From Cetorhinus maximus (lineage: Eukaryota), in assembly GCF_964194155.1 (NCBI RefSeq), contig NC_135893.1, forward strand, positions 14,756,001-14,820,000: a stretch of DNA of 64,000 nt, given 5' to 3'. The notes beneath the pieces were generated by a model. It searched no databases. It was not told the DNA's origin and saw only the letters and a program-made list of their open reading frames with translations. Every line of letters starts with the position of its first letter. The stretch's first letter is position 1. Of this stretch, positions 470-56,744 are shown one piece after another. The translations under genes and the position numbers were made by a program.

Positions 470-1120
470 CCACCACATCACACAAGTTGGCCACCTCCAC
501 CTCTGTAACATCACTTACCGTTGCCCCTACTTCAGCCCATCAACTGCTTAAACTCTCACACATGTCTTTGTCACCTTTAGACCCAACTGTTCCATTTGTC
601 TTATGGTTGGCCTCCCATCCTTCATTCTCTGTAAACTTTGAATCATTCTAAGTGCTGCCTAACCAATGCTGTCCTCACGCACCTCTGCATTCAAATGAAA
701 ATTTTCCCCTTGCTTAAAAAGTAGAAGCTGATTGTGCCCAAATTCCCGCTTATTCCCCCTCCCATATTCCTATTAACCTACAGTGGCCCTTAGCCTGCCA
801 CTCCCCCCCCCCCCCCCCCCCCCCCCCCATCACCCATCATCCCCATTGCCTCAATTATAAATTCTCATTCTTGGTGTTTAAATCCTTGCTCTTCCCTATC
901 CTGAAATTCTCTAACCTGTTTCTTGCCTTTTGTGCATCCCCCAATCCCTTCATTTCACCATGGGCGGATGGGCCTTCAGCTGCCTAGGCCCCAGACTCTG
1001 AAATTCCCTCCTCAATCTTTCCACCTCTCCTCATTAAAGACTATTCATTTAAAACTCACCAGTTTAACCAAACTTTTAATCACACCATCCATTTTTTCCC
1101 TTATGCCCCTAAAAGAGGTT
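470..1120 (+). mobile_element. Old L2-like LINE 3' remnant
   Basis: Degenerate L2-type 3' ORF/UTR motifs (aactctcacacatgtctttgtcacctttagac...; gccttcagctgcctaggccccagactctgaaattccctcc). A similar segment occurs at 36120-36480. Boundaries approximate. Confidence 0.5.
803..828. repeat. Poly(C) homopolymer, 26 nt
   Basis: Read directly from the sequence. Confidence 0.95.
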
Positions 1121-3950: not shown

Positions 3951-4271
3951 AAGTCTTTCACTCACAACAACAGTACAAGCTGTGTAAGGCTTGTTTCCGA
4001 TATCTGTTCTCAACTGGATTATAGAGAGATCGGAAAAACAGTCAAAGGGCGTTGACCCCTATCCACCTTGCACATATCATGGTACAGCGTAATTAGTTCA
4101 AGGGAAAGAACCCAGGGCACATTCCCATTGAAGCCTTGCAGTAATCAAGAGAAAATCAGTTTTATTTATGTTGTTAAAAATAAATACTTAAAACAAATGC
4201 GCCTTACTGAAATATATGTATGCTTTATGGTGCACCTGACAAAGAACGCAACATAAGAAATCGATCCTGGA

Positions 4272-4640
4272 ATAGTGTGTTGATTGGTTGGCAAGTGAAC
4301 ACTGGTAGAGGTGTTGCCATGGGGTGATAATAAATGATAGCCATTTGCTGGTTCATTCCTCAGAGCAATGCCTTGACCACTCAGAGTCAAGCTGCCTGGT
4401 TTAAAATTTCAAACAATGCTTGGCAGTTAACTGTCAAGTCAACATTAACTACTGCATTCTCCATGGCAACGCCGCTACCCAATCAGTGTCCACCTGCCAA
4501 CCAATCAGTACTTTCTTCTCATACAGTAACCCTAATATTGGTATTTTTACGATTGTCCTGATGAGTGCAAGAAGAAAATCTTCGACAAAATGTCTTCTTT
4601 CAGCAATGTACAAATTCTGTTCTACCAAACGACTATTTAT
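4272..4640 (+). mobile_element. Penelope-like element terminal repeat (family 1), with an inverted partial repeat and a hammerhead motif
   Basis: Homologous, in inverted orientation, to 33705-34030. Segment 4272-4322 is an inverted copy of 4461-4510. Hammerhead motif at 4553-4588. Confidence 0.7.
4553..4588 (+). ncRNA. Minimal type I hammerhead ribozyme motif
   Basis: TTGTC-CTGATGA-GT GCAAG AA-GAAA-ATCT-TC-GACAA. Stem I is TTGTC/GACAA; core boxes CUGAUGA and GAAA and the UC cleavage site are intact. Compared with the 33743-33778 copy, the stem II closing C and the AGCT palindrome are each mutated. Confidence 0.7.
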
Positions 4641-5419
4641 ATGTGCAATACCTTTGAAGATTAATTAGTACAGATACTCCTTTCTCAAAGGCATAACCTA
4701 TTGTCAATGTGTACAGCTCTCCAGCACAAGTGAGTGTCCAGGTGTCAAAAGTGAGTGTCCAGGTGTTAAGTTTTGATGGGCTATTCAATTGCTGAGAGAG
4801 CTGTTAAATTTGAGCATATTTTCCTTTAACTACAAGAGGTGGTTTGGGGTGCCATCTGACTTTCCATCAGTGATTTTTTTGGAATCATTCTCAAACAACC
4901 ATCTTTCTCTATAATGTATAGATTCAGGCTTTCTGGTGATTGGTGCAGATTATTCTTCAATAAGCTTTGCCGTATATGTCCAGCAGATCTGTGTTATGTT
5001 TCAATGGTGCAGAGTGTACCGTTGCCAGGCATAATAGTGAACGACAGCACCTCAATTCAATGTTAATGGATCTTCTGTGACATTGCTGCAAACCGTATTG
5101 GATCTGGAGTCCAAGTCTAATGTTTAGTTGCAAGTCTTTTGTTCTTTTTAAAACCTTGCTTCAGGTATATCCAGTGGACGAATGGTCTGTAGGTGCTGAG
5201 ATTATCAGGGGCTACTCATTTTTTAAAGATTTCTCCAGGTTGGCTGTTGCTTGGCTCCTCCCTTTTTGTTATCTCAAGTTGAGACATAACAGAAAATAAT
5301 TGGAATCATTTAGTCCTACTATGTTGCTGACAGGAAGCCTGAGGAAAGAGTTTTTGAGGTGGATATGATGCTGTTTGGAAGCGGGTAAATTTGTTTATTA
5401 TTTTGGAACAATCCTATTG

Positions 5420-7334: not shown

Positions 7335-7476
7335 GAGGTGTCAGCTGTGGCTCAGTTCATAGCACCCTCGCCTTTGAATCAGAGGGTTGTGGGTTCATGT
7401 CCCACTCCCGGAAACCAAGAACTGTGATTGTACTCGAAAGAGTTGCAATCTGTGACTGTTGATAACTCAAAAGAGT
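7335..7476 (+). mobile_element. Young 142-bp tRNA-derived SINE, copy 1
   Basis: A-box-like tggctcagttcatagc and B-box-like ggttcatgtccc. 14-bp TSD ttcaccacccttgt at 7321-7334 and 7477-7490. Matches the inverted copy at 37049-37190 at 140/142 positions. Confidence 0.9.
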
Positions 7477-7639
7477 TTCACCACCCTTGTCATGAACCAC
7501 TAGGTAGCCAATTTTTTTTTGAACAAAAATTTTTGAAGGAAGATTCCTGGGCACATTTTGGGGAGCTTTAGGGGATGGAAAATTGGGAGATTCAATTGAA
7601 ATACCAGAGAATTGATTTTCTGGGGAGCCAAATTGTGTT

Positions 7640-8960: not shown

Positions 8961-9379
8961 TGTATGCCATCAGTTCCATGGTTGCTACTTTGATTTGGTG
9001 GGTGGGGCCTGGCTCTCACAGAGGCACATGGGATGCCTGGAGGAATGGTGCACGTGACATATGTGCGGCTGTGAATAGTTGATGTATTGCTGTCTGCATG
9101 CAAAGGTGGAACCACTTTGACAGTTGTTGGTTGGTTTTTAAAAGCTGGGGCGAAAATCAACGAGAAGCACAGGATTAGTCATTTCTTCTCAATCCCCTCC
9201 TGTGGTAATGTATGGTAGCTGGAAGGTGAGTTTGTGTGAGCGTTACATAGTAGTAGCTGCTGAGGTAATTCTGAGATGGCCAGCAGCCCTGCACTAGCTG
9301 CAGTCATCAGTCAGGATTGCAGCAAAACTGACCTGGGAAGATAGACCCTTCACTGCCCTGCACCCCCCGCCCCACCCAC

Positions 9380-10420
9380 CCAATGTGGTACTGTTATTCA
9401 AGAAGGGAGGAAGGGATAAACCAGGGAACTACTGGCCAGTCAGTCTAACCTCAGTGGTGGGGAAACTATTGAAAGCAATTCTGAGGGACAGAATTAATCT
9501 ACACTTGGAGAGGCAGGGAACAATCAAGGACAGTCAGCATGGTTTTGTTAAGGGGAGGTCATGTCTGACCAATTTGATTGAATTTTTCGAAGAGGTGACC
9601 AGGTGTGTAGATGAGGGCAACGCGTTTGACGTAGTCTACTTGGACTTCAGCAAAACGTTTGATAAGTTCCTGCGTGGGAGGCTGATAACGAGGGTAAGAG
9701 CTCATGGGATCCAAGGCAATTTGGCAAATTGGATCCAGAATTGGCTGAGTGGCAGGAAGCAGAGGGTGATGGTCGAGGGGTGTTTTTGTGACTGGATGCC
9801 TGTGTCCAGTGGGGTTCTACAGGAATCGGTGTTGGGTCCCCTGCTGATTGTGGTATATATAAACGATTTAGACTTGAATGTAGGAGGATTGATCAGTAAG
9901 TTCGCGGATGACACGAAAATTGGTGGGGTGGTAAATAGTGAGGAGGATAGCCTTAGATTACAGGAGGATATAGAAGGGCTGGTCAGATGGGTCTGATCAG
10001 TGGCAAATGGAATTTAATCCAGATAAGTGTGAGGTGATGCACTTGGGCAGGACAAACAAGGCATGGGAATACACGATGAATGGAAGGACCCTGGAAAGTA
10101 CCGAGGAGCAGAGGGACCTTGGTGTACATGCCCACCTGTCCCTTAAGGTAGCGGGACAGGTAGATAAGGTGGTTAAGAAGGCATATGGGATACTTGCCTT
10201 TATTAGCTGAGGCATTGAATATAAGAGCAGGGATTTTATGCTGGAACTGTATAAAACGCTGGTTAAACTACAGCTAGAGTAATGCGTGCAGTTCTGGAAT
10301 CTGCATTATAGGAAAGATGTGATTGCACTAGAGAGAGTGCAGAGGAGATTTACCAGGAAGTTGCCTGGGCTGGAGAGTTTTAGTTATGAGGAGAGATTGG
10401 ATAGACTGGGGTTATTTTAG
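9380..10420 (+). mobile_element. CR1 LINE ORF2 fragment (reverse transcriptase)
   Basis: ORF 9385-9996 contains PGNYWPVSLTS, SQHGF, VYLDFSK and SKFADDTKIGG. It continues with stops to about 10420. Very similar to 41535-42350. Confidence 0.95.
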
Positions 10421-10499
10421 GCCTGTGTGAAGACTGGATGTGTGGGTAAGATATTCAAAGGATGCTAAATGTTATGAAACCATGCAGGTTTAATTTAAA

Positions 10500-10642
10500 T
10501 GGATAAGTCATGGCAGGAGCGCTCAACACCGTGGTGTACTCCTCGTGCCCCATGTGGGAAGCTGGAGACATTTCCAGGTGGTCATAATCAGGGGAACAGA
10601 TAGGTGCAGCTGTGGCCGTCAATGTGATTCCAGGATGGTATG
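10500..10642 (+). mobile_element. CR1 ORF1 fragment (internally deleted)
   Basis: MAGALNTVVYSSCPMWEAG start, followed by the esterase segment IRGTDRCSCGRQCDSRMVC. Confidence 0.7.
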
Positions 10643-11098
10643 TCCAGGGAGGGCAACATACCGTCCTGGAGTCACGTTGATGGCCACAGCAGCGCCTATC
10701 TGTTCCTCTGACTGTAGAATCTCCTATTACCATTGCTCTTCCTCCCCTCCTGTACAGACAGGCTGCTTGTGGTGCCAGAAGCTTGGCTTTGTCCGCACTC
10801 CCTGGAGGAACCAGCGCCCTCATCAGCCTCCAAAACGGAATACTGATTTGTGAGCGGGACCCCAGGGGACTCCTGAACTACCTGCCTGTTTCTCTTGGAC
10901 TGCCTGGTGGTCACTAATTCCCTTCCTTCCTCAAGTCCCTTCATTTGCGGTGTGACCACCTCTCTAAACGTGCTATCCACGATGCTCTCAGACTCGCGGA
11001 TGCTCCAATGTCCCCAGCCGCTGTTCCAGCTCTGAAACCTGAACTTCCAGGAGCTGCAGCTGGACACACTTCCTGCACACATGCTGGTCCCGGGCACT
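10643..11098 (-). mobile_element. CR1 ORF1 fragment, inverted (zinc finger to esterase)
   Basis: Minus strand HVCRKCVQLQLLEVQVSELEQRL and VIGDSTVRGTDRRCCGHQRDSRTVCC (GDS esterase motif). Confidence 0.85.
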
Positions 11099-12750
11099 CG
11101 GGGAGAGAGACTGCAAGGTTCTTAAGCAAATTGATATAGGGCGTGACAAGGTATTGGAGGTGTTGGCAGGCTTAAAAGTGGACAAATCTCCAGATCCAGA
11201 TGATTTGTGTCCCAGACTGCTGAGGGAGACAAGGGAGGAGATCACAGGGGCTCTGACCCAAATTTTTAATTCCTCTCTGGCCACGGGGGAGGTGCCAGAG
11301 GACTGGAGAATAGCTAATGTGGTTCCGCTATTTAAGAAGGGTTGTAGAGATAAGCCAGGGAACTACAGGCCAGTGAGTCTCACGTCAGTGGTAGGGAAAC
11401 TATTGGAGAAAGTTCTGAAGGAGAGTATCTATCTCCACTTGGAGAGGCAAGGTTTGATCAGGGATAGTCAGCATGGCTTTGTCAGAGGGAGGTCATACCT
11501 AACAAATTTGATTGAATTTTTTGAGGAGGTGACCAGGTGTGTAGAAGAGGGTAGTGCAGTTGATGTAGTTTGTATGGATTTCAACAAAGCCTTTGACAAG
11601 GACCCACATGGGAGACTTATAAAGAAGGCAAATGCACATGGGATACAGGGTAATTTGATAAGGTGGATTCAAAATTGGCTTAGTTGTAGGAGGCAGAGGA
11701 TGCTTTAGTGACTGGAAGCCAGTGTCCAGTGGCGTACCACAGGGATCTGTGCTGGGTCCCCTATTATTTGTCATTTATATAAGCGACATAGATGACTGTG
11801 TGGGGGGTAGGATTAGTAAGTTTGCGGATGACGCAAAAATTGGCCAGGTGGTTAACAGTGAGGTTGAGTGTCTTGGGCTACAGGAAGACATAGACGGGAT
11901 GGTCAAATGGGCAGATAAGTGGCAGATGGAATTTAACCCTGAAAAGTGTGAGGTGATACACTTTGGAAGGAGTAATTTGACAGGGAAGTATTCAATGAAC
12001 GGCATGGCACAGGGAAGTTCTGAGGAACAGAGGGACCTTGGCATGTGTGTCCATAGATCTCTGAAGGCGGAGGGGCATGTTAGTCGGGTGCTGAAAAAGG
12101 CATATGGGACACTTGCCTTTATCAATCAAGGCATAGATTACAAAAGTAGGGAGGTCATGTTGTAGTTGTATAGAACCTTGGTGAGGCCACAGCTGGAGTA
12201 CTGTGTGCAGTTCTGGTCACCACATTATAGGAAGGATGTGATTTCACTGGAGGGGGTGCAGAGGAGATTCACCAGGATGTTGCCTGGGATGAAACATTTA
12301 AGTTATGAAGAGAGGTTGGATAGACTTGGGTTGTTTTCGTTGGAGCAGAGAAGACTGAGGGGCGACCTGATCGAAGTGTACAAAATTATGAGGGGCATGG
12401 ACAGGGTGGATAGGGAGCAGCTGTTCCCCTTAGTTGAAGGGTCAGTCACAAGGGGGCATAAGTTCAAGGTGAGGGGCAGGAGGTTTAGGGGGGATGTGAG
12501 GAAAAACTTTTTTACCCAGATGGTGGTGACGTTCTGGAATGCACTGCCTGGGAGGGTGGTGGAAGCGGGTTGCCTCACATCCATCCTTTAAAAAGTACTT
12601 GGATGAGAACTTGGCACATCATAACATTCAAGGCTATGGGCCAATTGCTGGTAAATGGGATTAGGTAGGTAGGTAAGTCAGGTGTTTCTCACATGTTGGT
12701 GCAGACTCGACGGGCCGAAGGGCTTCTTCTGCAATGTGATTCTCTGATTC
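11099..12750 (+). mobile_element. CR1 LINE 3' half (RT, C-terminus, 3' UTR)
   Basis: ORFs 11154-12591 contain GVPQGSVLGP, SKFADDAK and RPQLEYCVQFWSP. Ends in a CR1-type short repeat tail (gattctctgattc). Confidence 0.95.
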
Positions 12751-20683: not shown

Positions 20684-20769
20684 AATCAATTTATAGGCGT
20701 GGGGCTAGAAGATGGCGGAAGCTTTACCGTGTGAATGGACATCTCTTTCAGGCCAAACGATTTAACAGG
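20684..20769 (+). CDS. PRKCZ: Protein kinase C zeta internal exon (pseudosubstrate and start of C1 domain)
   Basis: Acceptor cttctttctctctattctag| and donor AGG|gtgagt; 86 nt, entering in phase 1. Translates (K)[35 protein letters not shown] fits zeta better than iota (LYC..GHTF). Confidence 0.92.
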
Positions 20770-23720: not shown

Positions 23721-23871
23721 CAGCAAGCTAAAAGCAAAATATTATGGATGCTAGAAATCTGAAATAAAAACAGATTTGAAGAAGGGTCATACCAACTCAA
23801 TGTTAACTCTGTTTCTCTCACCCCAGACACTGTCAGACCTGCTTAGTTTTTCCAGCATTTTCTGTTTTTAT
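23721..23871 (+). mobile_element. Penelope-like terminal-repeat insertion (family 2) with 5' inversion and 13-bp TSD
   Basis: TSD tccagtggaataa at 23708-23720 and 23872-23884. About 23730-23774 is opposite in orientation to 23775-23871, which contains a decayed hammerhead (ttgaagaagggtc...tgttaactct). Confidence 0.8.
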
Positions 23872-24120: not shown

Positions 24121-24740
24121 ACAAAAACAAAAAATGCTGGAAAAACTCAGCAGGTCTGACAGCATCTGTGGAGAGAAAGACAGAATTAACGTTTTGAGTC
24201 CATATGACTTCTTCAGAGCTGAAGGGAAGTAGAAATGTGGTGATATATATACTGTTTAAGGGGGTGCAGAACAGGTGAACCTGGATAGAAGGCCAGTGGT
24301 AGGTGGAGGCAAAGATGTCATAAACAAAATGTCAAAGGGTTGTTATTAGTGGTGGTTCTGGCTAAAGGACGTGCTAATGGTGACATTAAGAGTGGAAAGC
24401 AGAATGTGATAATGGCTGGACCAGGGTAAGCATTCTGGAAAGTGACAGATGGCCCTAATGGGGGTGGGGTGGGGGGAGGGGACGGTGGTGGGAAAAAAGA
24501 TCGAAAAGGCTAAAAGTTGGGGATAAAACAATGAATAAAGTGGAAATAAATTTTAAAAATAATAATAATGAAAATGTGGGGGGGGGAAATAATAAATACA
24601 TAAAAATTTAAAAATTAAAAATGAATAAGAAAAAAGGGGCGGGATCAGAAAGGGGTGGGGATGGAGGAGAGAGTTCATGGTCTGAAGTTGTTGAACTCGA
24701 TGTTAAGTCTGGAAGGCTGTGAAGTGGCTAATCAGAAGAT
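24121..24740 (-). mobile_element. Penelope-like element 3' end (GIY-YIG C-terminus and terminal repeat, family 2)
   Basis: Minus strand IF*LATSQPSRLNIEFNNFRP*. Hammerhead-like ctgaaga-agtc atatg gact-caaaacgtt at 24181-24220. Confidence 0.85.
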
Positions 24741-32169: not shown

Positions 32170-33704
32170 GCATGGTCAGGAGAGTATACCTGAGTGAGAC
32201 ATAGACTGAGTGAGTAGTGAATTAGGTTCATGTGGGAATTCGGTGCACAGGAGAAAGAGGTGCTTTAAGTGAGGTTTATTGCAACAAGTAAAGTGTGTTA
32301 AGTATTAGTCTGATTTATCAGTACTAAAGTTTATCAGTAGTTGTAAGGTTTATTAAGTTAAGGCCAAGTAAAATTAATTTAATATAACTAAATCAACATA
32401 AAATAAAGTTAGCGTAAGTAAAGTAAAGGCATGGCAGGGCAGCTCGGTCATGTGGGATGCATATCCTGTAGTATGTGGGAAGTTGTGGATGCTACCAGTG
32501 ACCTAGATGTGCAGGAAGTACTCCCAGCTGCAGAAACTTGAGCTCAGGGTTTTGGAGCTGGAGTGGTGGCTGGAGTCACTGTGGCACATCTGCGAGGCTG
32601 AGAGCTATGTGGATAGCACGTTCAGACAGTTGGTCACACCACAGGCTAGGAGCATGGAGGCAGAAAAGGGAATGGGTGACTGCCAGGCAGTCCAAGAGAA
32701 CCAGGCAGGTAGTGCCGGAGTCCCTTGTGGTCCCACTTGCTAATTGGTTTTCCGTTTTGGATACTGGTGAGGGCATTTGATCCTCACAGTAGTGCAGCCA
32801 CAGCCAAGTTCGTGGCACCATGGGCAGGTCAGCTGTACAGGAGGGGAAGAGGAGTACTGATAGGGAATTCGTTAGTTAGAGGAACAGGCAGACGTTTCTG
32901 TGGCCTAGACGTGTCTTCAGGATGGTATATTGCCTCCCTAGTGCCAGGGTCGAGGATGTCACGGAGTGGCTGCAGAACATTCTTTGGGGGGAAAGTCAGT
33001 ACCACGTCAGTACCAATGACTTGGGTAGGAACGGAGTTGAGGTCCTGAAAGCAGATTTCAGGGATATAGGAAGGAGATTGAAAAGCAGGGCCTCTAAAGT
33101 AATCTCAGGATTACTTCCAGACCCACGTGCTAGTGAGCATAGAAATAGGAAAATTGAGTGGCTGAACACGTGGCTGGAGAACTGGTGCAGGAGGGAGTTC
33201 ATCAGATTTCTGAGACACTGGGACCTGTTCTGTTAAAGATGGACGGACTGCATCTTAGCAGGACCAGGACTAACATCCTTGCGGGGAGTTTCACTAGTGC
33301 TTTTGGGGAGGGTTTAAACTAGATTGGCAGGGGGGTGGGAACCTGAGAGGGAGCTCAGATTTGAGGGAAGCAAAATTGGTAAAAGAAAGTAGAAAGCGAA
33401 AATAGAAGACAGACCAAACATAGGCAAGCATCAAATAGGATCAGAATAGAGAATAATGTTAAAAAAGCAGAATTAAAGGCACTCTATATGAATGCACGTA
33501 GCAGTCGCAAAAATGTTGTTGATCTGAATGCACAAATTGAGGTAAATGGGGTAATTGGCATTATGGAGACATGGCGACAGGGTGACCAAGATTGGGAACT
33601 GAATATCCAAGGATATTCAGCATTTAGGAGGGGTAGTCAAAAAGGAAAAGGGGGTGGGATAGCACTCTTAATAACAGACGAGATCAGTACATTGGTCGTT
33701 TGGT
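32170..33704 (+). mobile_element. CR1 5' part: 5' UTR, ORF1 (zinc finger and esterase) and start of ORF2 endonuclease
   Basis: CISCSMWE..CRKYSQLQKLELRV, LIGNSLVRGTGRRFCG, HVSTNDLG and MNARSSRKNVVDL..GIMETW. Cut off by a Penelope-like insertion. Confidence 0.9.
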
Positions 33705-34030
33705 AGTACAGAACATGAGTATTGCTGAAAAAAGAGACTTTTTCATCAAAGCTTTTCGTCTTGCACTCGAGGACAATTCGCAAAAAAATACAAATGTCAG
33801 GGGAAACAACATTTATACTGTGTGAGAAGAGAGTGTTGATTGGTTGGCGAGTGAACTCTGGTAGAGGAGTTGCCATGGAAGATGCACAGTGGATGGTGAC
33901 TGACAAGTTAACTGCCAAACATTGTTTGAAATTTAATCCCGGCAGCTTGACTCTGGCCAAGACATTGCCCTGGGGAATGAACCAACGAATGGCTGACATT
34001 TATTTTGTTTAGCTGAAACAGGTACAATGT
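33705..34030 (-). mobile_element. Penelope-like terminal repeat (family 1) with decayed hammerhead
   Basis: Reverse complement of 4350-4640. Hammerhead region 33743-33778 reads ttgtc-ctcga-gtgcaagac-gaaa-agct-tt-gatga. Confidence 0.75.
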
Positions 34031-34494
34031 AGAATTTAAAGCTGAAAAGTATGTAGTTGTGTGTAGCAATAGAAGTCCCTGATTTTATTTGTGCAGTAAG
34101 GGAGATGGCAGCTATGATGTTCTGGCTGTATTGGGTAAAGAGGTTAGCTGTAGTAACATTGTATGAATAATTATAAAGTGATTACTTTTAACGGGGGTTA
34201 TGTCTAGCAGCAATAATCAGTTGCAGTAATTTGTTAACGTATTGGTTGGACTTTGGAACACGAAGCTTATACTTTTCAGTGGAAAACCAGCTTATCAGGC
34301 AAGTAAATGCGGGGAATTAGAGACTTAAAAAAAACCCTGCCAATATACTGAATTAAAAATAGGCAATAAATAATTGTTTCGAACATTTGCATGGCATGCT
34401 TGACTATATTTATATATGACCAGGAATGGACCAGTCACATAAAGAGAAATATGAAATTACTGAGGGCACTTGAAGTAACGTCATTTTTCTATTA

Positions 34495-34631
34495 CACAAA
34501 AGCAAAATGCTGCAGCTTTTAGAAATTTGAAATTAAAGACAGGAAATGCTGGAAATACTCAGCAGGTCTGGCAGCATATGTGGAGGGAGAAACGAAGCTA
34601 CTGTTTCAGGCTGACGACCTTTCATCAGACT
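34495..34631 (-). mobile_element. Penelope-like terminal repeat fragment (family 2)
   Basis: aaatgctggaaatactcagcaggtctggcagcat; the minus strand reads ctgatga-aaggtcgtcagcct-gaaa. Confidence 0.8.
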
Positions 34632-36119
34632 TCATTTTATTGAGCTTGATTAGCAAACTCTCAAATGGAAGCAACATAGTGGTGTTTACCAATTTGAAAG
34701 AAAACTTCACAGCAGATGGATTTTCCAGTGATGTTGCACAGCAAGGTCTCAGATTACCTCTGAAGCTGTTGCTTGGGATTTTATTAGGCCTGCAATCACA
34801 TGCTTTATTTTCGCCCCAGTATTGTGAATTTTATTTTCTTGTTCCTCCATTTATTCAAGATGGTTTTGTTGACAAAGAGAAAAACTTAATCTGTGAATCT
34901 TTAAAGCTCCCATTCATTTCAATGCTTTCAGTCACAACAACTCTAGGTTTCCAACCATCATAAGATCTTCAATTTTTAAGTCAACATTTATAGGAAAGCT
35001 CTTTCCCTGTAAGCAAGAAATTAGAGAAATCAGAATACAAAATGAGTGCTTTGTCTCCCACCTGTTAGGAACTTGATGGGCTTGAATTGTTCTCCTCATC
35101 TGTGGAAGAAAGATTTGAGATGGTGTAACACAACCTTCTGGACGAGGACACTTGACTGCGGTGCATTCTGAAAAATTCATTTATGCAATACTGTCAGGAG
35201 ATGGTTCACATGTTGCTTGGCAGTGACTTCCTTCAGCTGGTTCAACCAGGAGGTGTTCAGGTTTATTTTCACCCACTGCCATCCATTTCTGCTGCTAAGT
35301 GAAGCGACCAGCAGTTGAAATTTCTTTCCTTGAATCACCTGTCTGAAGCTGCCCATGTGATTTTTCAGGTGCACTTTCAAATTAGCAGCCCTTTACAATT
35401 CAGGCGTCTGCTGACCTGACTGTACAGGCTGAACTTTCACTGAGTCGGGATGACTTGGATAAAGAACCTTTATCTGGGGTTTCGATTTTCAGGAGTGACT
35501 GTTAAGGGTTTGGGTCAAAGGCTTGGCACCTTGCACTTCTCACCTGACTGGCCCCAATGCAGGGAAAGGCATGTCCTTGTCCTCTGCAGTTTTCATGGAG
35601 TTGGGCAAGGTTTGCAATGAGTAATGGTTCACGTCGCCTCAGAGGCATCGTGAACCATAGTCTGCATGAGGGGACTTTTTAAAAGGTAAGCTCAAAAGAT
35701 CATGATCCTTATACCAAGGTATGTCGCTCCACCTATATCCCATGGCCCCTAATGCTCCCTAAGCCATGCTGTGGCATCAACATGCCCATTGACACTATAT
35801 ACAGTATAGAACCAGTGAACCCCATAGTGGCAATAGAATCTGTGTATTAAAAAAAGTAATTCATTCATGACTTCCCGTTATGTTTAAAAAAAATCCTCCT
35901 TTTTAACGACAGGGCAATGAAAGTGTCAATCACTCAGATCCTTTAAAGTTTCAATAGGTGAAACTGCAAACATTTGAAACCTCTTAACCTTGTGAAATAA
36001 ACATTGTCCAATTGACAACAGAGATCAGAGAGCCAGAGATGTCAACAAGCAGTGTTTTCTCTGGGACTTGGATGTTTTAAAAGATGAATGGATGTCTGGG
36101 CTCTTAACCAAGAATTCAT

Positions 36120-36480: not shown

Positions 36481-37048
36481 CTGGAACATGCTCTCAAAAT
36501 TACAGTTATAAAGTTTTGTGGGGCCAGGAGAAGCAGGAATGCTGACTCTTGGAAAAAAAAATGTGATCTGCTGTGGGTCACTAAATGAGCCCTCCCTTTA
36601 GGATGCCTTCTTCCCCTTTTAATTTCCATCTGGCTTGGTTTCCTCTATGGATCAGGTGGGGTTCCCATCTCCACTGCACCCCTCCCACCAAAATACTGAG
36701 CTGTCCATCAATACTCATTAATCACTCACCAGCTGACCAACCAAGTACAAATGAGGCAGAAGTTGAAAAAGGTTTGGATGTTACTGATATTGGCAGGTGA
36801 TGTGATAATTACAATCAGCACCCACCCATTCGGGCTGATGTTGAAATTTGTCCTGCTTATCATTTCCTCTTGCATAACATTTTAGAAGTTGAGCCAGCCA
36901 ACCAAATTGGCTCTAATGAAAGGCTGTTTACAGACAAAGACTTAAACAACATAGTGTCAGATCCAATTTGTGCATTGTTTCCTCCACAAAGACATCACAA
37001 TGTACTTCAGAAAGCAAATACACAGCCACTTTTAGCCCATAGCTTGAA

Positions 37049-37190
37049 ACTCTTTCGAGTTATCAACAGTCACAGATTGCAACTCTTTCGAGTACAATCA
37101 CAGTTCTTGGTTTCCGGGAGTGGGACATGAACCCACAACCCTCTGATTCAAAGGCGAGGGTGCTATGAACTGAGCCTCAGCTGACACCTC
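37049..37190 (-). mobile_element. Young 142-bp tRNA-derived SINE, copy 2
   Basis: 14-bp TSD gcccatagcttgaa at 37035-37048 and 37191-37204. Near-identical reverse complement of 7335-7476. Confidence 0.9.
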
Positions 37191-40689: not shown

Positions 40690-42350
40690 AAGCCGGGCAA
40701 GTAGTAGAGGTATCAGTGGGGGAGCATTTTGCAATAGTGATCATAACTCCATTATGGAAAAGGACAAGGCTGGGCCAGAAATCGGAGTTCTAAATTGGGG
40801 GAAGGCTGATTTTAATAAGATCAGATATGATTTGGCCAGAGTGAACTGGGAGCAGCTACTTTTAGGTAAATCTGCGTCAGAGCAGTGGGACTCATTCAAG
40901 GAGGAAATAGGGAGAGTACATGGCCAACATATTCCAGTAAAGATAAAATGTGGGACCAACAAATCCAGGGAACCCTGGATGTCGAGGGATTGGATAAAGA
41001 GAAAAAGGGAGGCTTATGGCAGATACCGAGGGCTCAAAACAGCGGAAGCCCTAGAGGAGTATAGAATGTGTAGGGGGAACTTAAAAAGGAAATTAGGAGA
41101 GCAAAAAGCAGGCATGAAAAAACATTGGTAGGTAAAATAAAGGAAAATCTAAAGTTATTTTACAAGCACATTAAGAGTAAGAGGATAACTAGGGAAAGAG
41201 TAGGGCCCATTAAGGACCATAGTGGTAATTTGTGTGTGGAGCCGGAAGATGTAGGTAGGCTTCTAAATGAATACTTTGTGTCAGTGTTCACAAGTGAGAG
41301 GGGCGATGTGGGCATGGAAATCGGGCAGAAGGACTGAGATATAATTAAAGAAATTAATATAGAAAGGGAGGAGGTTCTAAGTGGTCTGGCAGGCTTAAAA
41401 GTAGATAAATCTCCAGGCCCAGATGCAATGTACCCCGGGCTGTTGAGTGAGGCAAGGGAGGAGATAGGGGCATTGGCAATAATTTTCAATACCTCTCTGG
41501 CCACAGGTGAGGTGCCAGAGGACTGCAGGACAGCCAATGTGGTACCGTTATTCACAAGAAGGGAGGAAGGGATAAGCCAGGGAACTACAGGCCAGTCAGT
41601 CTAATAACTCAGTGGTGGGGAAACTATTGGAAGCAATTCTGAGGGACAGAATTAATCTACTCTTGGAGAGGCAGGAATTAATCAAGGATAGTCAGCATGG
41701 TTTTAAGGGGAGGTAATGCCTGACCAATTTGATTGAATTTTTCAAAGAGGTGACCAGGTGTGTAGATGAGGGCAACGCATTTGACGTAGCCTACTTGGAC
41801 TTCAGCAAGGCTTTTGATTAGGTCCCACGTGGGAGGCTGATAACGATGCTAAGTGCCCATGGGATCCAAGGCAATTTGGCAAATTGGATCCAGAATTGGC
41901 TGAGTGGCAGGAAGCAGAGGGTGATGGTCGAGGGATGTTATTGTGACCGGATGCCTGTGTCCAGTGGGGTTCCACAGGGTTCGGTGTTGGGTCCCTTGTT
42001 GTTTGTAGTATATCTGAACAATTTAGACTTGAATGTAGGAGGGTTGATCAGTAAGTTCGTGGATGACACGAAAATTGGTGGGGTGGTAAATAGTGAGGAG
42101 GATAGCCTTAGATTACAGGAGGCTATAGACGGGCTGGTCAGATGGGCTGATCAGTGGCAAATGGAATTTAATCCGGATAAGTGTGAGGTGATGCACTTGG
42201 GCAGGACAAACAAGGCACTGGAATACATGATGAATGGTAGGACCCTGGGAAGTACTCAGGATCAGAGGGACCTTGGTGTACATGTTCATCGGACCCTTAA
42301 GGAAGTGGGACAGGTAGATAAGGCGGTTAAGAAGGCATATGGGATACTGT
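40690..42350 (+). mobile_element. CR1 ORF2 fragment (end of endonuclease to RT)
   Basis: LNWGKADF, PWM, DKSPGPD, GVPQGSVLGP and KFVDDTKIGG. Confidence 0.95.
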
Positions 42351-42509
42351 GACCAGAACTTGATACAGTATTTAAGCTGTAGCTAAACCAGAACAGTGAT
42401 TAGAAAATTTGAGTATTTCACTTTAGAATACAGCACTGAACATGCTTGTGGTTCAGAGCTAATCATTCATTCCCTTGATGACCCAAAGTTAAGTGGAATA
42501 GTCAGATTG

Positions 42510-43198
42510 TAAACAAAAACAGAATTACCTGGAAAAACTCAGCAGGTCTGGCAGCATCGGTGGAGAAGAAATCAGTTGACATTTCGAGTCCTCACGACCC
42601 TTCGGCAGAACTGAAGTATAGTTAGGAGAGAGGTGAAATATAAGCTGGTCTAAGGTGGGGTGTGGGGGGAGAGAGAAGTTGAGGGTGGGGTGGGGTGGGG
42701 ATAAGCAAGCAGTGATAGGAGCAGATAATCAAAAGATGTCACAGACAAAAGGATCAAAGAGGTGTTGAAGGTGGTGATATTATCTAAGAAAAGTGCTAAT
42801 TAAGAATGGAAGGCAGGATACTCAAGGTACAGCTCTAGTGAGGGTGGGGTGGAAAGACTAACAAAGTTTTAGATTTAAAAATAATGGAAATAGGTGGGAA
42901 AAGAAGAATCTATATAAATTATTGAAAAAAGGGGGGGGGAAGAAACGGGGTGGGGATGGGGGGAGGGGAAGTTTAAGATCTAAAGTTGTTGAATTCAGTA
43001 TTCAGCCCGGAAGGCTGTAAAGTGCCTAGTCGGAAGATGAGGTGCTGTTCCTCCAGTTTGTGTTGGGCTTCACTGGAACAATGCAGCAAGCCAAGGACAG
43101 ACACAGAACAGGGTGGAGTGTTAAAATGGCAAGCGACAGGGAGGTTTGGGTCTTTCTTGCGGACAGACCGCAGGTGTTCTGCAAAGCGGTCTGTCCGT
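42510..43198 (-). mobile_element. Penelope-like element 3' part (GIY-YIG C-terminal region and terminal repeat with hammerhead, family 2)
   Basis: Minus strand DRFAEHLRSVRKKDPNLPVACHFNTPPCS..LGLLHCSSEAQHKLEEQHLIFRLGTLQPSGLNTEFNNFRS*. Confidence 0.9.
42573..42613 (-). ncRNA. Minimal hammerhead-like motif (family 2)
   Basis: Minus strand CAGTT-CTGCCGA-A-GGGTC GTGAG GACTC-GAAA-TG-TC-AACTG. Stem I is perfect and stem II has 5 bp; the core A6 is mutated. Confidence 0.6.
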
Positions 43199-44001: not shown

Positions 44002-44681
44002 CAAACTGAGTATTTCAATGGCATGTCTTCGGATCAGTCAGTTAGCAATATGCCAAATAATGCAGCAGTTTTTTTTAAATTTAAGTTGTTAAATTTTGTA
44101 TACTATTTAATTCAAATAAATCTTATTTGACTGCTGTTTATGGACAGAAAAAAGGCAAGCTATTCCTTAGGAGTAAAAGCATAGAGGAGTTTGAGTGAAA
44201 AATACAGGAATGCTTCCAATTACAGCTGATGGAGATTGTGACCAAGTTACACAAGGGTGATGGGGGTGGGTAGTGTGACTTTTATGGAACCCACAAGAGT
44301 GGGAAGCATGGCATTCTGGGTGGCTTAATTAGGTGAGATGCAAAATTTGGTTACTCAACAGCAGGTTGAAATGCAGAGATGAAGTCAGCGGTGTGTCGAG
44401 CATTACACTGGACTGTGGCAAGTTCGTACTTAGAGTAAAACATATTTTAAATGATGTCCTACTTTCAAGGTAAAGTCAGCAGTGTATGAGAATCTCTATG
44501 CTTTTCCCCCCAAGGAATAGCTTGCCATTTTTCTGCCCATTAGCAGCAGTCAAAGAAGATTTATTTGAATTAAATAACATACAAAATTTAACAGCTTAAA
44601 TTTTTTTAAAATTTGCTGCATTATTTGGCATATTGCTAACAGACTGATTCTAAGACATGCCATTGAAATACTCATAGTTTG
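44002..44681. repeat. About 100-bp inverted repeat with a spacer of about 480 bp
   Basis: 44002-44100 (caaactgagtatttcaatggcatgtctt...gttaaattttgta) pairs with 44580-44681 (tacaaaatttaac...aagacatgccattgaaatactcatagtttg). Confidence 0.9.
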
Positions 44682-48374: not shown

Positions 48375-51300
48375 GAGGAGCGTGAAAGAGGACAACCCTG
48401 GGACAGGCAGTCAGCAGCACCTAGAGGAGAGTGCGAGAGGAAGACCCTGGGACAGACATAGACCAGATCCTCTGGCTGCTGCTGACTATCTAGAGGATCT
48501 CACATCTAGTCTATATTCAAGTAGGAGTAAGGGTAAAATAAAAGCTACGGTTAAGATAAATATGGGGAGCTCAGCCCCGTGATTTGCACATCTTGCGCTT
48601 TATGGGAAATCCTAGATGCTCCTGGCAGTCTGAATGACTATGTGTGCAGGAGGTGCCTCAGACTGGAGCAACTCAAGCTCTGGGTTTTGGACCCAGAGCG
48701 GCAGCTGGGGGCATTACGTTGCATTCACGAGGCTGAGAGGTTCGTGGATTGTGTGTTTCAGGACATGGTCACCCCGAAGCTTAAGGAAGTGCAAGCAGAG
48801 AGGGAATGGGTCACCACCAGACAGTAGAGGAGGACCAGGCAGGTAGTGAGATAATTCCCCGAGTGCACCTCACTCGCAAACTGTTTTTCGGCCTTGGAAA
48901 ATGGTGAGAGTGACTGTTCCTCTGTGGAGGCCAACCAGAGCCAAGGCCATGGCACTGTGGATTGTCCAACTGCTTGGGAAGGGGGGAGGAAGATATGTGG
49001 AAGGGCAATAGTGGTAGGGGATTCATTAGTGAGGGGAGTAGACAGGCGCTTCTGTGGCTGTAGACGTGATTCCAGGACAGCATGTTGCTTCCCGGGTGCC
49101 ATGGTCAAGGATGTCACAGAATGGCTGCAGGGCATTCTGAAGGGGGAGGGTGAACAGTCAGAGATCATGCCCATATTGGGACCAATGACCTAGGAAGAAA
49201 GAGAAATGAAGTCCTGCAAGCAGACTTTAGGGAGTTAGGTAGTAATCTCTGGATTACCCCCATGTGCCACGCAGTAGTGAACAGAAGGATAGAGCAGATG
49301 AATGCGTGGCTGGAGAGATGGTGCAGGACCGGACCTAGGGGAGGGGGGCTTACATTCCTGGGGCATTGGGACTGTTTCTGGGGGAGGTGGGACTTGTACA
49401 GGTTGGATGGGCTACATCTGAACAGGCACGGGACCAACATCCTCGTGGGGAGGTTTGCTAATGCTGTTGGGACGGATTTAAATTAAATTGGCAGGGGGAT
49501 GGGATCCTGAGAAGTAGTTCAGAGAGGAGAGAAGCTGAGATGGAATTAGAAGTTAAAATGTTAGTTAGTGAGTCTGGAAGGCAGAGGAAACATAGGCTAG
49601 ATAAGAAAGAAGTGAGTTTAGCGAGGCTAAATGGAATATATTTTAATGCAAGAAGCCTGAGGAATAAGACAGGCGAACTGAGGGCACAGATAGGCACGTG
49701 GGAGTATGATATCATAGCTATGACCGAGACTTGGCTAAAAGGACAGGATTGGCAGCGCAATATCCCTGGTTAAGGGTATTCAGATGAGATAGAAGGGAAT
49801 AGAAGAGGAGGAGGAGTCACAATATTGATCAAGGAATCAATTATAGCAGTGAGGAGGGATGATATCTTGGAAGGATCATCAAATGAGGCCATATGGGTAG
49901 AAGTAAAAAACACAAAAGGGGCAAACACGCTGTTGGGTGTGTACTATAGGCCCCCAAACAGTCGGGGAGAGATAGAGGATCAAATATGTAATCAAATTTC
50001 AGAGAAGTGTTAGAAGAGTAAGGCAGTAACAGTAGGGGATTTTAACAACCCAAATATAAACTGGGATAGTTTTAGTGTGTAAGGTAGGGAGGAGGCAAAA
50101 TTCTTAGGTTGCATCCAGGAGAACTTTTTTAGCCAGTACATAGCCCAACAAGGGAGGGGGCAGTTCTGGACCTAATATATGGAAATGAACCCGGGCAGAT
50201 GGAAGGCATATCAGCAGGGAAGCATTTTGGAGATAGTGACCATAGCTCAGTTAGATTTATGATAGTTATGGAAAAGGATAAGGTTGGGCTGGGAATAAAA
50301 GTTTTAAACTGGGAAAAGGCTAATTTTACTAAGATGAGATATGATTTGGCCCAAATGTACTGGGAGCAGCTCCTTGCAGATAAAACTGTTTCAGAGCAGT
50401 GGGAGGCATTCAAGGAGGAAATAGCGCGAGTACAGGGCAAATATGCTCCCGTAAAGACAAAGTGGGGGACGAAGTCCGGAGAACCCTGGATGTTGAGCGA
50501 TATAAAGGTTAGGATTAAGAAAAAAAGAGAAGCTTATGGCAAATACCGAGGGCTCAATATACAGCAGAGTCCGTAGAGGAGTATAAAAAGTGCAGGGGGG
50601 TATTTAAAAAGGAAATTAGGAAAGCTAAGAGTGTGCATAAGAAAGCATTGGTGGGTAGAATAAAAAAAAATCCAAAGGGGTTTTTTAAATATATGAAGAG
50701 CAAGAGATTAAGTCGGGAAAGAGTAGGGCCAATGAGGGACCATAGAGGTAATCTGTGTGTGGACCCGGAAGACATGGGTACAGTCCTCAATGAATACTTT
50801 GCGTCGGTCTTCACAATGGAAAAGGACGGCACAGGTATAGACATAAGGGTGGAGGACTGTGAAATATTAGAGGAAGTTAACATAGATGGAGAGATGGTAC
50901 TAGCGGGTTTAGTGGCCTTAAAAGTGGATAAATCCGCAGGCCCGGATGAGATGTATCCCAGGCTGTTGAGGGAGGCAAGGGGAGAGAAATCAGGGGCCCT
51001 GGCAGTAATTTTCGAATCCTCTCTGGCCACAGGTGAGGTGCCAGAGGACTGGATGACTGCTAACGTTATCCCATTATTAAAAAAGGGAGGAAGGTATAGA
51101 CCAGGAAATTACAGACTAGTCAGTCTAACCTCAGTGGTGTGGAAGTTACTAGAAAGAATTCCGAGGGATAGAATATATCTGCACTTGGCGAGACACGAAT
51201 TAATCAGGGATAGTCAGCATGGATTTGTTAAGGGAAGGACATGTTTGACAAACTTGATCGAATTTTTTGAGGAGGTAACCAGGAGTGTTGATGAGGGTAA

Positions 51301-52425
51301 TGCCTTTGATGAGGTCTACATGGACTCTAGCAAGGCTTTTGATAAGGTCTCTCAAGGCAGACTGGTCAAGAAAGTAAGAGCCCATGGGATCCAAGGCTAG
51401 GTGGCACATTGGATCCAAAACTGGCTGAGAGGATGATGGTAGAGGGATGTTTCTGTGACTGTAAGTCTATTTCAGGTGGGGTTCTGCAGGGCTTGGTGCT
51501 GGGGCCTTTGCTGTTTGTGGTGTACATAAATGATTTGGACATAACTGTAGGGGATATGATCAAGAAGTTTGTGGATGACACGAAAATTGGTAGGGTGATA
51601 AATGGTGGGATAGCTGTAAACTGCAGGAGGGTATCAATGGACTGGTCAGGTGGGCAGAGCAGTGGCAAATATAATTCAGCCCGGAAAAGTGTGAGTTAAT
51701 GCACTTGGGGGAGGGCTAACAGGGAAAGGGATTACACATAAATGGTAGGACCCTGGAAAGTACTGAAGATCAGAGGGACCTTGGTGTGCATATCCACATA
51801 TCCAAAAAGGTAGATAAGGTAGTTAAGAAGGCATATGGGATATTGTAAAGAGCCGGGAGGTTATACTGGAACTGTATAAAACACTGGTTAGGCCACAACT
51901 GGAGTACTGCATGCAGTTCTGGTCACCACTTTATAGGAAGGATGTGATTGCACTGGAGAGGGTGCAGAGGAGATTTACCGGGATGCAGCCTGGGCTGGAG
52001 GGTCTGAGCTGTGAGGAAAGATTGGATAGGCTAGGGTTGTTTTCCTTGGAGCAGAGAAGGTTAAGAGGGGACCTGCTAAAGGTGTATAAGATTGAAGGGC
52101 ATATATAGGGTGGATAGGAAGGCACTTTTTCTGTCAGTAGAGGGGTCAATAATAGATTTAAGGTAAGAGGTAGAAGGCTGAGAGGGGGGCTTAGGAGAAT
52201 CTTTTTCACTCAGAGGGTGATGGGAGTCTGGAACTCACTGCCTGAAAGGGTGGTTGAGTCAGAAATTCTCGTAACATTTAAGTATTCACTTGCGTTGCCA
52301 TAGCCTCCAGGACTATGGGCCAAACGCTGGAAAATGGGATTGGTGGAGTCAGATCTTTGTTGACCGGCGTGGACACGATGGGCCGAATGGCAGCCTCCTG
52401 TGCTGTAAACATCTAAGAGTCTATA
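48375..52425 (+). mobile_element. Near full-length CR1 LINE (ORF1 zinc finger/esterase; ORF2 APE endonuclease and RT), inactivated by stops and frameshifts
   Basis: CTSCALWE..CRRC; VVGDSLVRG; DGLHLN; YFNARSL..AMTETWL; GVYYRPP; GDFN; SDH; SQHGF; KFVDDTK; QFWSP; CR1 3' UTR. Confidence 0.95.
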
Positions 52426-55809: not shown

Positions 55810-56744
55810 AGAACAAAGAAAAGTACAGCACAGGAACAGGCCCTTCGGCCCTCCAAGCCTGCGCCGATCATATTGCCCGTCAACTAAAACATTATGCACT
55901 TCCGGGGTCCGTATCCCTCTATTCCCATCCTATTCTTGTATTTGTCAAGCTGCCTCTTAAACACCACTATCGTACCTGCTTCCACCACCTCCTCTGGCAG
56001 CGAGTTCCAGACACTCACTACCCTCTGCGTAAAAAACTTGTCCCGCACATCACCTTTATAGTTTTCTCCTCTCACCTTAAATCTATGTCCCCTAGTAATT
56101 GACTCTTCCACCCTGGGAAAAAGCTTCTGACTATCTACTTTGTCCATGCCACTCATAATTTTGTAAACTTCTATCAAGTCTCCCCTCAATCTCCGTCGCT
56201 CTAGTGAGAACAATCCGAGTTTCCCCAACCTCTCCTCATAGCTAATAACCTCCAGACCAGGCAGCATCCTAGTAAACCTCCTCTGCACCCTCTCCAACGC
56301 CTCCATATCCTTCTGGTAATGTGGTGACCAGAATTGCACGCAATATTCCAAGTGTGGCCTAACCAAGGTTCTATACAGCTGCAGCATGACTTCCCAGCTT
56401 TTATACTCAATAGCCCTGCCAATGAAGGCAAGCATGCCATATGCCTTCCCGCCTACCTTATCCACCTGCGTTGCCACTTTGTGACCTGTGGACCTGTACA
56501 CCCAGATCCCTCTGCCCACCCAGATCCCTCTGCCCACCCAGATCCCTCTGCCCGTCAATGCAATTAAGGGTTCTGCCATTTACTGTGTAATTCCTGCCTG
56601 TATTAGACCTTCCAAAATGCATTACCTTGCATTTGTCCGGATTAAATTCCATCTGCCATTTCTCCGCCCAAGTCTCCAACCGATCTATATCCCATTGTAT
56701 CCTTTGACAATCCTCTTCACTATCTGCAACTCCTCCAACCTTGG
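55810..56744 (-). mobile_element. Young 5'-truncated CR1 inserted in the Gypsy integrase
   Basis: 9-bp TSD tgtaatcaa (55801-55809 and 56745-56753); tail (ttctttg)n; long open RT C-terminus (ORF 55884-56579). Confidence 0.95.
56500..56553. repeat. Perfect 18-bp tandem triplication
   Basis: (acccagatccctctgccc) x3, which reads GQRDLG x3 on the minus strand. Confidence 0.95.

Follow-up and report, generated by a model that had tools for sequence, protein, structure and literature searches.

It is known that minimal hammerhead ribozymes (min-HHRs) reside in the pseudo-LTRs (pLTRs) of Penelope-like elements (PLEs). Those described by Cervera and De la Pena (2014; PMC4209133) are of type I, with a short stem I, a palindromic stem III and a G10.1–C11.1 pair. 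The motif lies in both pLTRs of an element, and thousands of dispersed single copies were reported together with dual motifs about 3 kb apart and on opposite strands. In the examples given there, helix II is long (6–8 bp) and an extra base separates positions 9 and 10.1. As reported in the same paper, the min-HHRs of metazoan PLEs were inactive as monomers and weak as dimers.

A second described design is the pseudoknot-stabilised hammerhead, in which stem II is very short and a pseudoknot of 5–7 bp ties it to stem I (Perreault et al., 2011; PMC3088659). It was reported for types I–III, including a ribozyme with a 1-bp stem II; most of the examples presented come from microbes, phages or, as single copies, from vertebrates, and are active as monomers. 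The Poseidon element of Anolis carolinensis (PAc) encodes an RT followed by a C-terminal GIY-YIG domain, with a hammerhead overlapping the ORF start and a tail that follows this hammerhead. PAc is an active element, and its hammerhead was protein-assisted and dispensable for insertion in the in vitro assays reported (PMC11167929). Finally, the amniote hammerheads of RECK and CTCL/C10orf118 are type I, lie on the sense strand of introns and derive from retroelements; they are described as single, ultraconserved, canonical and active (PMC6155905).

In a 64-kb stretch of Cetorhinus maximus DNA (the window, from whose first nucleotide all positions are counted), an earlier note had marked a hammerhead at 4553–4588. 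Reading of the forward strand confirmed a type I minimal hammerhead core there, with the same letters as the note had quoted, including the loss of the G10.1–C11.1 pair and the change of the palindrome to ATCT (Table 1). The CUGANGA, GAAA and UH core elements occur in order, and all 11 core bases and the 5-bp stem I are unbroken. A generic scan of the window for compact hammerhead-like motifs whose stem I has 5 bp found this match and no other; second-order Markov-shuffled windows gave 0.035 matches per window (7/200). A 2801-nt contig from a public run showed 0 differences over 4558–4900, indicating that the substitutions of this copy are not assembly errors. An Rfam scan, proposed in the note as a check, returned no hammerhead family among its 11 matches up to E 10. 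The type I identity, the dimer logic of the palindromic stem III and the predicted cut after C4583 were supported. The boundary at 4553 was too short, as the motif runs 5′ to 4545 with a pseudoknot strand. The note's 2-bp stem II likewise overlooked this pseudoknot, and a stem II of at most 2 bp holds.

Table 1. Features of the window and of two related metagenome contigs
Feature	Position	Strand	Remarks
Inverted 54-nt pLTR piece, adjoining the main copy at its 5′ end	4270–4323	−	84% to sisters (blastn); self-match
5′-truncated PLE 3′ end, 310 nt	4329–4638	+	last ~25 codons of ORF (stop near 4402–4404), pLTR, hammerhead, tail
Putative loop-II pseudoknot, 5′ strand (family UCUUGCR)	4545–4551	+	changes at 4546 and 4549 give a U.G pair and an A.C mismatch
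Stem I, 5 bp	4553–4557/4584–4588	+	sequence reading
Core CUGAUGA	4558–4564	+	sequence reading
10.1/11.1, G.A mismatch	4565/4573	+	sequence reading
Loop II	4566–4572	+	sequence reading
Predicted competing 5-bp hairpin	4571–4583	+	pair probability 0.82–0.96 in 30–250 nt context
Core GAAA	4574–4577	+	sequence reading
Stem III loop, AUCU replacing the palindrome	4578–4581	+	broken at 4579
U16.1–C17	4582–4583	+	predicted cut after 4583
Atypical PKC exon, pseudosubstrate region	20684–20769	+	PKC iota match 4e-11; closes the ~165-kb intron holding the motif
Second truncated copy, antisense, next intron	33691–34031	−	aligns over ~330 nt; 2-nt deletion in CUGAUGA
Braced hammerhead of L273 (metagenome contig)	748–797	+	stem I of 6 strict pairs
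Braced hammerhead of L332 (metagenome contig)	293–342	−	stem I of 3 strict pairs

The motif belongs to a large repeat family. When the 361 nt around it were searched against the 4.0-Gb genome, 6644 candidates were obtained, of which 40 were scored and showed 82–86% identity. At two or fewer mismatches the motif occurs 18,196 times (9170 on the plus and 9026 on the minus strand; control 0), or once per ~220 kb. The note had reconstructed the motif with the help of the inverted paralog, and the reconstruction was borne out by 200 exact genomic occurrences of the 32-mer (control 0). The paralog itself lacks 2 nt of CUGAUGA. Sixty loci shared a sharp common 3′ end 50–100 nt past the core; their 5′ ends were ragged, many with an inverted piece upstream. 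The same layout at the window copy, with an inverted pLTR piece at the 5′ end, is described as typical of PLE insertions (PMC8557442). The pLTR of the window copy contains CCAAT-like boxes and lacks the 12-nt stretch bearing the family TATAAA. No target-site duplication longer than 4 nt was found around the insertion.

Longer sister copies contain a single ORF with a DKG motif, an RT and, at the C-terminus, a GIY-YIG-like domain. The RT part matched RVT_1 in Pfam below the cut-off (E 4e-5 to 0.07) and was placed at 0.96 beside RT/HTH_animal clusters of the atlas. The endonuclease part, with no match in Pfam or PDB, showed a VVY-x-YVG, R, H, E pattern by eye and an atlas score of 0.95 to GIY-YIG clusters, in which that family is annotated on 11–20% of members; the last His of the CCHH motif is not obvious. 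No CX2-5CxxC zinc-finger linker between the RT thumb and the endonuclease was seen in the sister ORFs, and absence of this linker is given as a mark of the Penelope/Poseidon clade (PMC8557442). The pLTRs, 5′ truncation, inverted 5′ copy and tail that are hallmarks of PLEs were all found in the family. With an N-terminal probe, 8 of 30 loci carried a same-strand hammerhead ~400 nt upstream and continued into the ORF; four of these eight full-length candidates bear both hammerheads on one strand, 2660–2848 nt apart, and the window copy bears one. The Penelope-like origin claimed in the note is thus supported by the ORF of the sisters and by the paired hammerheads. Apart from the self-match, the best ~120 ORF matches were 61–78% identical and most contained stops, which makes a helper protein doubtful. 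The family is old and apparently extinct, and by its domain layout it is Poseidon-like, resembling PAc in the order of its RT and GIY-YIG-like domain, its hammerhead at the ORF start and its tail, and differing from that active element in appearing extinct. At one locus (L230, G000:C8:133623000-133628000), two identical decayed copies lie 3593 nt apart on one strand, apparently through a later tandem duplication.

Like the described min-HHRs (PMC4209133), the family has the type I form, a short stem I, a palindromic stem III and, at family level, the G10.1–C11.1 pair. As there, the motif occurs in the two pLTRs of an element, single copies are scattered by the thousand, and dual motifs lie about 3 kb apart and on opposite strands. 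The family differs from the examples of that paper in lacking both the long helix II and the extra base: in the window copy G10.1 directly follows A9. Position 11.1 is C in 18/29 family copies and T, by CpG decay, in 8/29. The palindrome is AAGCUU in the family (G in 147/164 copies) and AAUCUU in the window copy. The outer pair of stem I (pair 5) is U-A, G.U, A-U or C-G depending on the subfamily, and was paired in 139/156 copies compared with 71.7 after shuffling; these 156 distinct copies were pooled from several sources, 30 of them having been selected because they carry the exact motif, and they represent a few inherited events and not 156 independent ones. N17 is C, U or A in 155/156 copies, and across families (see below) both sides change at 4/5 stem I pairs. 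These patterns indicate that the family ribozyme was under selection while the element was active.

In full-length copies, the ORF begins at or just past the motif. The in-frame AUG varies among subfamilies. It is the core AUG (A6-U7-G8) in the subfamily of the window copy, with a spacing of 43 (4561–4604 in the window), and it lies within or just past the 3′ strand of stem I in other subfamilies, with spacings of 42 and 45. A pyrimidine run and CAG after stem I resemble a 3′ splice site. A conserved start codon in the core was considered and rejected family-wide: the AUG-to-ORF spacing (42/43/45) differs by 1–3 nt between subfamilies and the one with N17=A carries a stop in frame, so that no single reading frame governs the core. 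Covariation is moreover found in stem I and in the loop-II pairing described next.

The bases lying between G10.1 and C11.1 match, as a complement, seven nucleotides located 13–14 nt upstream of C3 (the heptamer). This pairing of loop II with the 5′ flank, hereafter the brace, sets the family apart from the min-HHRs as described in PMC4209133. It was complete (7/7) in 99/164 collected family copies; at 6/6, control windows of the same 164 copies reached it in 4 and 5 copies, against 102 for the brace. Within the Cetorhinus genome, the sole lineage-level brace change is one-sided (G.U/A-U). Two loop-variant pattern searches for a second braced family in this genome (14 and 91 matches; 58 loci inspected) yielded only decayed copies of the same family.

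A pattern scan of metagenomes gave at least 120 stretches, and 3 viral matches brought the total to at least 123. Among the listed matches, PLE proteins were matched in two contigs, L273, through its RT (E 1.5e-9), and L332, at both the N-terminus (E 2e-10) and the C-terminus (E 8e-6); in L332, an ORF end, the hammerhead and an ORF start lie within 625 nt. Both contigs pair 7/7 at the family's offset with different sequences, as against 2 (one sequence) of the 121 other listed matches. These two, L278/L338, lie inside a bacterial ORF without stem I and were treated as chance. None of the three viral pattern matches had hammerhead stems or an encoded relative. Over the three families, both sides of the brace change at 4/7 positions. 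A formal covariation analysis on 8 rows supported 3/7, because L273 lies one column out of register, and its score was reached by 0/500 shuffles. None of the three families varies at U10.2 or A11.2; these bases could pair with each other, leaving a 2-bp stem II and a 5-bp brace, or with the flank. The covariation over three families thus suggests that the intact family hammerhead likely folds with an additional pseudoknot brace.

The very short stem II and 5–7-bp pseudoknot are shared with the hammerheads of Perreault et al. (2011; PMC3088659), compared with which the present family is a retrotransposon's and, as predicted from sequence, adds to the brace a stem III that is palindromic and of the dimer type. 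A brace in PLE hammerheads was not found in the literature searched, which covered the field in part, and an earlier description is possible; the word "pseudoknot" is absent from the main text of PMC4209133. The brace looks like a real variation on a known design, placed where the literature searched does not show it.

Four structural substitutions were identified in the window copy: two in the brace (4546 and 4549), one at 10.1/11.1 (4573) and one in the palindrome (4579). The brace duplex was calculated at +1.5 kcal/mol in this copy against −7.8 kcal/mol in an intact one, and the stem III duplex at −4.3 kcal/mol between intact copies, +5.7 kcal/mol for the window copy with itself and +2.4 kcal/mol with an intact partner. 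The changes at 4573 and 4579 would also create a hairpin over G12, A13, U16.1 and C17. With ViennaRNA, which is unable to represent pseudoknots such as this one, the intact copy too failed to adopt the hammerhead fold (stem I probability 0.06–0.14); the folding predictions therefore serve for comparison only. A U-U mismatch at 10.1/11.1 is tolerated in one natural ribozyme. The suggestion that the copy was silenced by just two substitutions was therefore an understatement, given four changes and a competing hairpin. The double change at 4573 and 4579 recurs in 6 genomic copies; it was rejected as a mark of a sub-lineage, since the flanks of these copies belong to several subfamilies, which points to recurrent decay.

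To assess the retained core, 29 loci were picked by their endonuclease protein, and the 23 ungapped ones were used (6 truncated or gapped loci were dropped). Of these copies, unselected for the ribozyme, 6/23 keep all 11 core bases and 0/23 keep the core, the G-C pair and the palindrome. An intact core is hence unremarkable, and the state described as "near-intact" is what neutral decay gives. Core columns vary by 11.7%, compared with 11.2% in the upstream pLTR; the core decays no slower. In 29 sisters chosen for similarity to the window copy, variation was lower in the 36-nt motif (3.2%) than in the remaining sequence (5.1%; p = 0.01), with p = 0.41 for the core alone; this set is biased, and a non-ribozyme window in it was equally low (2.7%).

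The host gene was searched with a splice-site scan that took in the window together with flanks of 200 kb. Atypical PKC exons were found on the plus strand at −144218 to −144168, 20684–20769 and 64159–64290, followed by further kinase exons, all with AG/GT borders; the previous exon lies ~149 kb upstream of the motif. A PB1 family search gave no match at the host gene. With plus-strand exons on either side, the motif lies on the sense strand of a ~165-kb intron. The best solved-structure matches of the exons are to PKC iota, with differences at diagnostic residues that presumably point to zeta, and we take the exons to be numbers 4–6. The note's placement on the sense strand of a PRKCZ intron is thus upheld for the strand and for an atypical PKC intron, and zeta over iota is our assumption from those residues.

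This position raises the question of co-option by the host gene, in the manner of the amniote intronic hammerheads, with a role in tuning splicing or the choice between PKC and PKM transcripts. The motif sits on the sense strand of a large intron ahead of the pseudosubstrate exon, which we take to be the intron of the PKM-zeta promoter. In mammals, PKM-zeta arises from an internal promoter that lies within a large intron of PRKCZ (PMC3517905). Two contigs with other organism labels suggest that the insertion is shared: one from run X6 covers 4530–4656 with 2 differences in 127 nt, and one from run X5 covers 4600–4832 and crosses into the unique flank. Each is a single contig at depth 2, too thin for a conservation test. 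However, at ~18,000 copies and one per ~220 kb, a sense intronic copy is expected, and 4 plus-strand and 4 minus-strand family pieces in 464 kb reveal no strand preference. At non-CpG sites the window copy also departs by 8.0% from the majority of its 29 closest sisters, more than any of those sisters does (2.7–7.9%), and its changes strike exactly those pairs that the family conserved. Unlike the single, ultraconserved, active amniote ribozymes (PMC6155905), with which it shares type I form, sense strand and retroelement origin, it is damaged, one of thousands and shows no sign of selection. Co-option is accordingly unsupported and highly improbable.

The other alternative is that the copy is a weak self-cleaver, as the earlier note had already raised; without being selected for this, it would now and then cut the intron as it is transcribed, perhaps in trans with RNA from an intact copy or with a chaperone. 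It would agree with the intact core and stem I, the sense orientation, the hundreds of intact copies elsewhere as possible partners (200 with the exact motif; 317 with the brace) and the protein-assisted hammerhead of PAc (PMC11167929). Yet the heterodimer would have a central mismatch in stem III at +2.4 kcal/mol, the predicted hairpin would cover G12 and the cut site, and the brace is lost; pseudoknot disruption slowed a 1-bp-stem-II ribozyme 20- to >100-fold (PMC3088659). Intact min-HHR monomers were likewise inactive in PMC4209133, and the decayed ORFs make a helper protein doubtful. The nearest same-strand family motifs lie 168 and 179 kb upstream, past the previous exon, and metazoan PLE hammerheads were reported inactive as monomers or without protein (PMC4209133, PMC11167929). 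This alternative is also unsupported, and we regard it as improbable.

Taken together, we consider the window motif to be a decayed PLE pLTR hammerhead and likely an inert passenger spliced out with its intron, with a probability of roughly 0.86 on the sequence evidence. In the once-active element, the ribozyme was likely dimeric: two same-strand hammerheads are found ~2.7 kb apart, and their AAGCUU palindromes are predicted to pair as a stem III of 6 bp. Stem II, being very short, would have been braced by the 5–7-bp pairing of loop II with the heptamer 5′ of stem I, as the covariation suggests. Cleavage after N17 at the ORF start would process the element RNA, possibly assisted by the element protein, by analogy with Anolis Poseidon. 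A 5′-truncated insertion with its inverted pLTR piece would then have drifted neutrally, and this copy lost the G10.1–C11.1 pair, the palindrome and two brace pairs. It is probably transcribed within the intron and degraded with it without effect.

Other repeats were observed in the window. An unrelated second hammerhead family is represented at 34600–34637 on the minus strand (core at 34628); its stem I has 9 bp, and an extra base precedes a stem II that is longer, as in the classical min-HHR form; related pieces occur at 23799–23869, 24123–24194 and 42515–42586. Copies of this family at −10157 and 66461 (+) in the flanking DNA are in sense orientation and seem to have suffered less damage than the copy at 4553–4588. 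An inverted pair of 146 nt (7335–7480 and 37045–37190) with 99% identity, 29.6 kb apart, is a very young repeat, and 44007–44186 and 44494–44674 form a long terminal-like inverted repeat (88–90%) around ~300 nt that is MITE-like. Broken RT-encoding LINE pieces, which we take to be of CR1 type, lie at 9298–12591, 40691–42443, 50133–52093 and 55884–56579.

The window copy itself is retrotransposon debris and of little weight. The family is of modest interest, as the role of PLE hammerheads is described as unsettled (PMC8557442, PMC11167929) and their cleavage in vitro as poor. With a covarying brace outside the usual boundary of the motif, the possible incompleteness of earlier minimal constructs becomes directly testable, and copies mutated by nature are available in their thousands as ready controls. 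More speculatively, and unlikely as the whole of it may be, a PLE clade extending from vertebrate to metagenome elements may have replaced a stem II of 1–2 bp by a covarying pseudoknot, weak reported activity may partly reflect constructs without the flank, and hundreds of intact braced copies, not including the window copy, would cut host pre-mRNAs when two of them meet. If intact copies do cleave host introns, the ~18,000 motifs of this 4-Gb genome would be depleted on one strand or in gene bodies.
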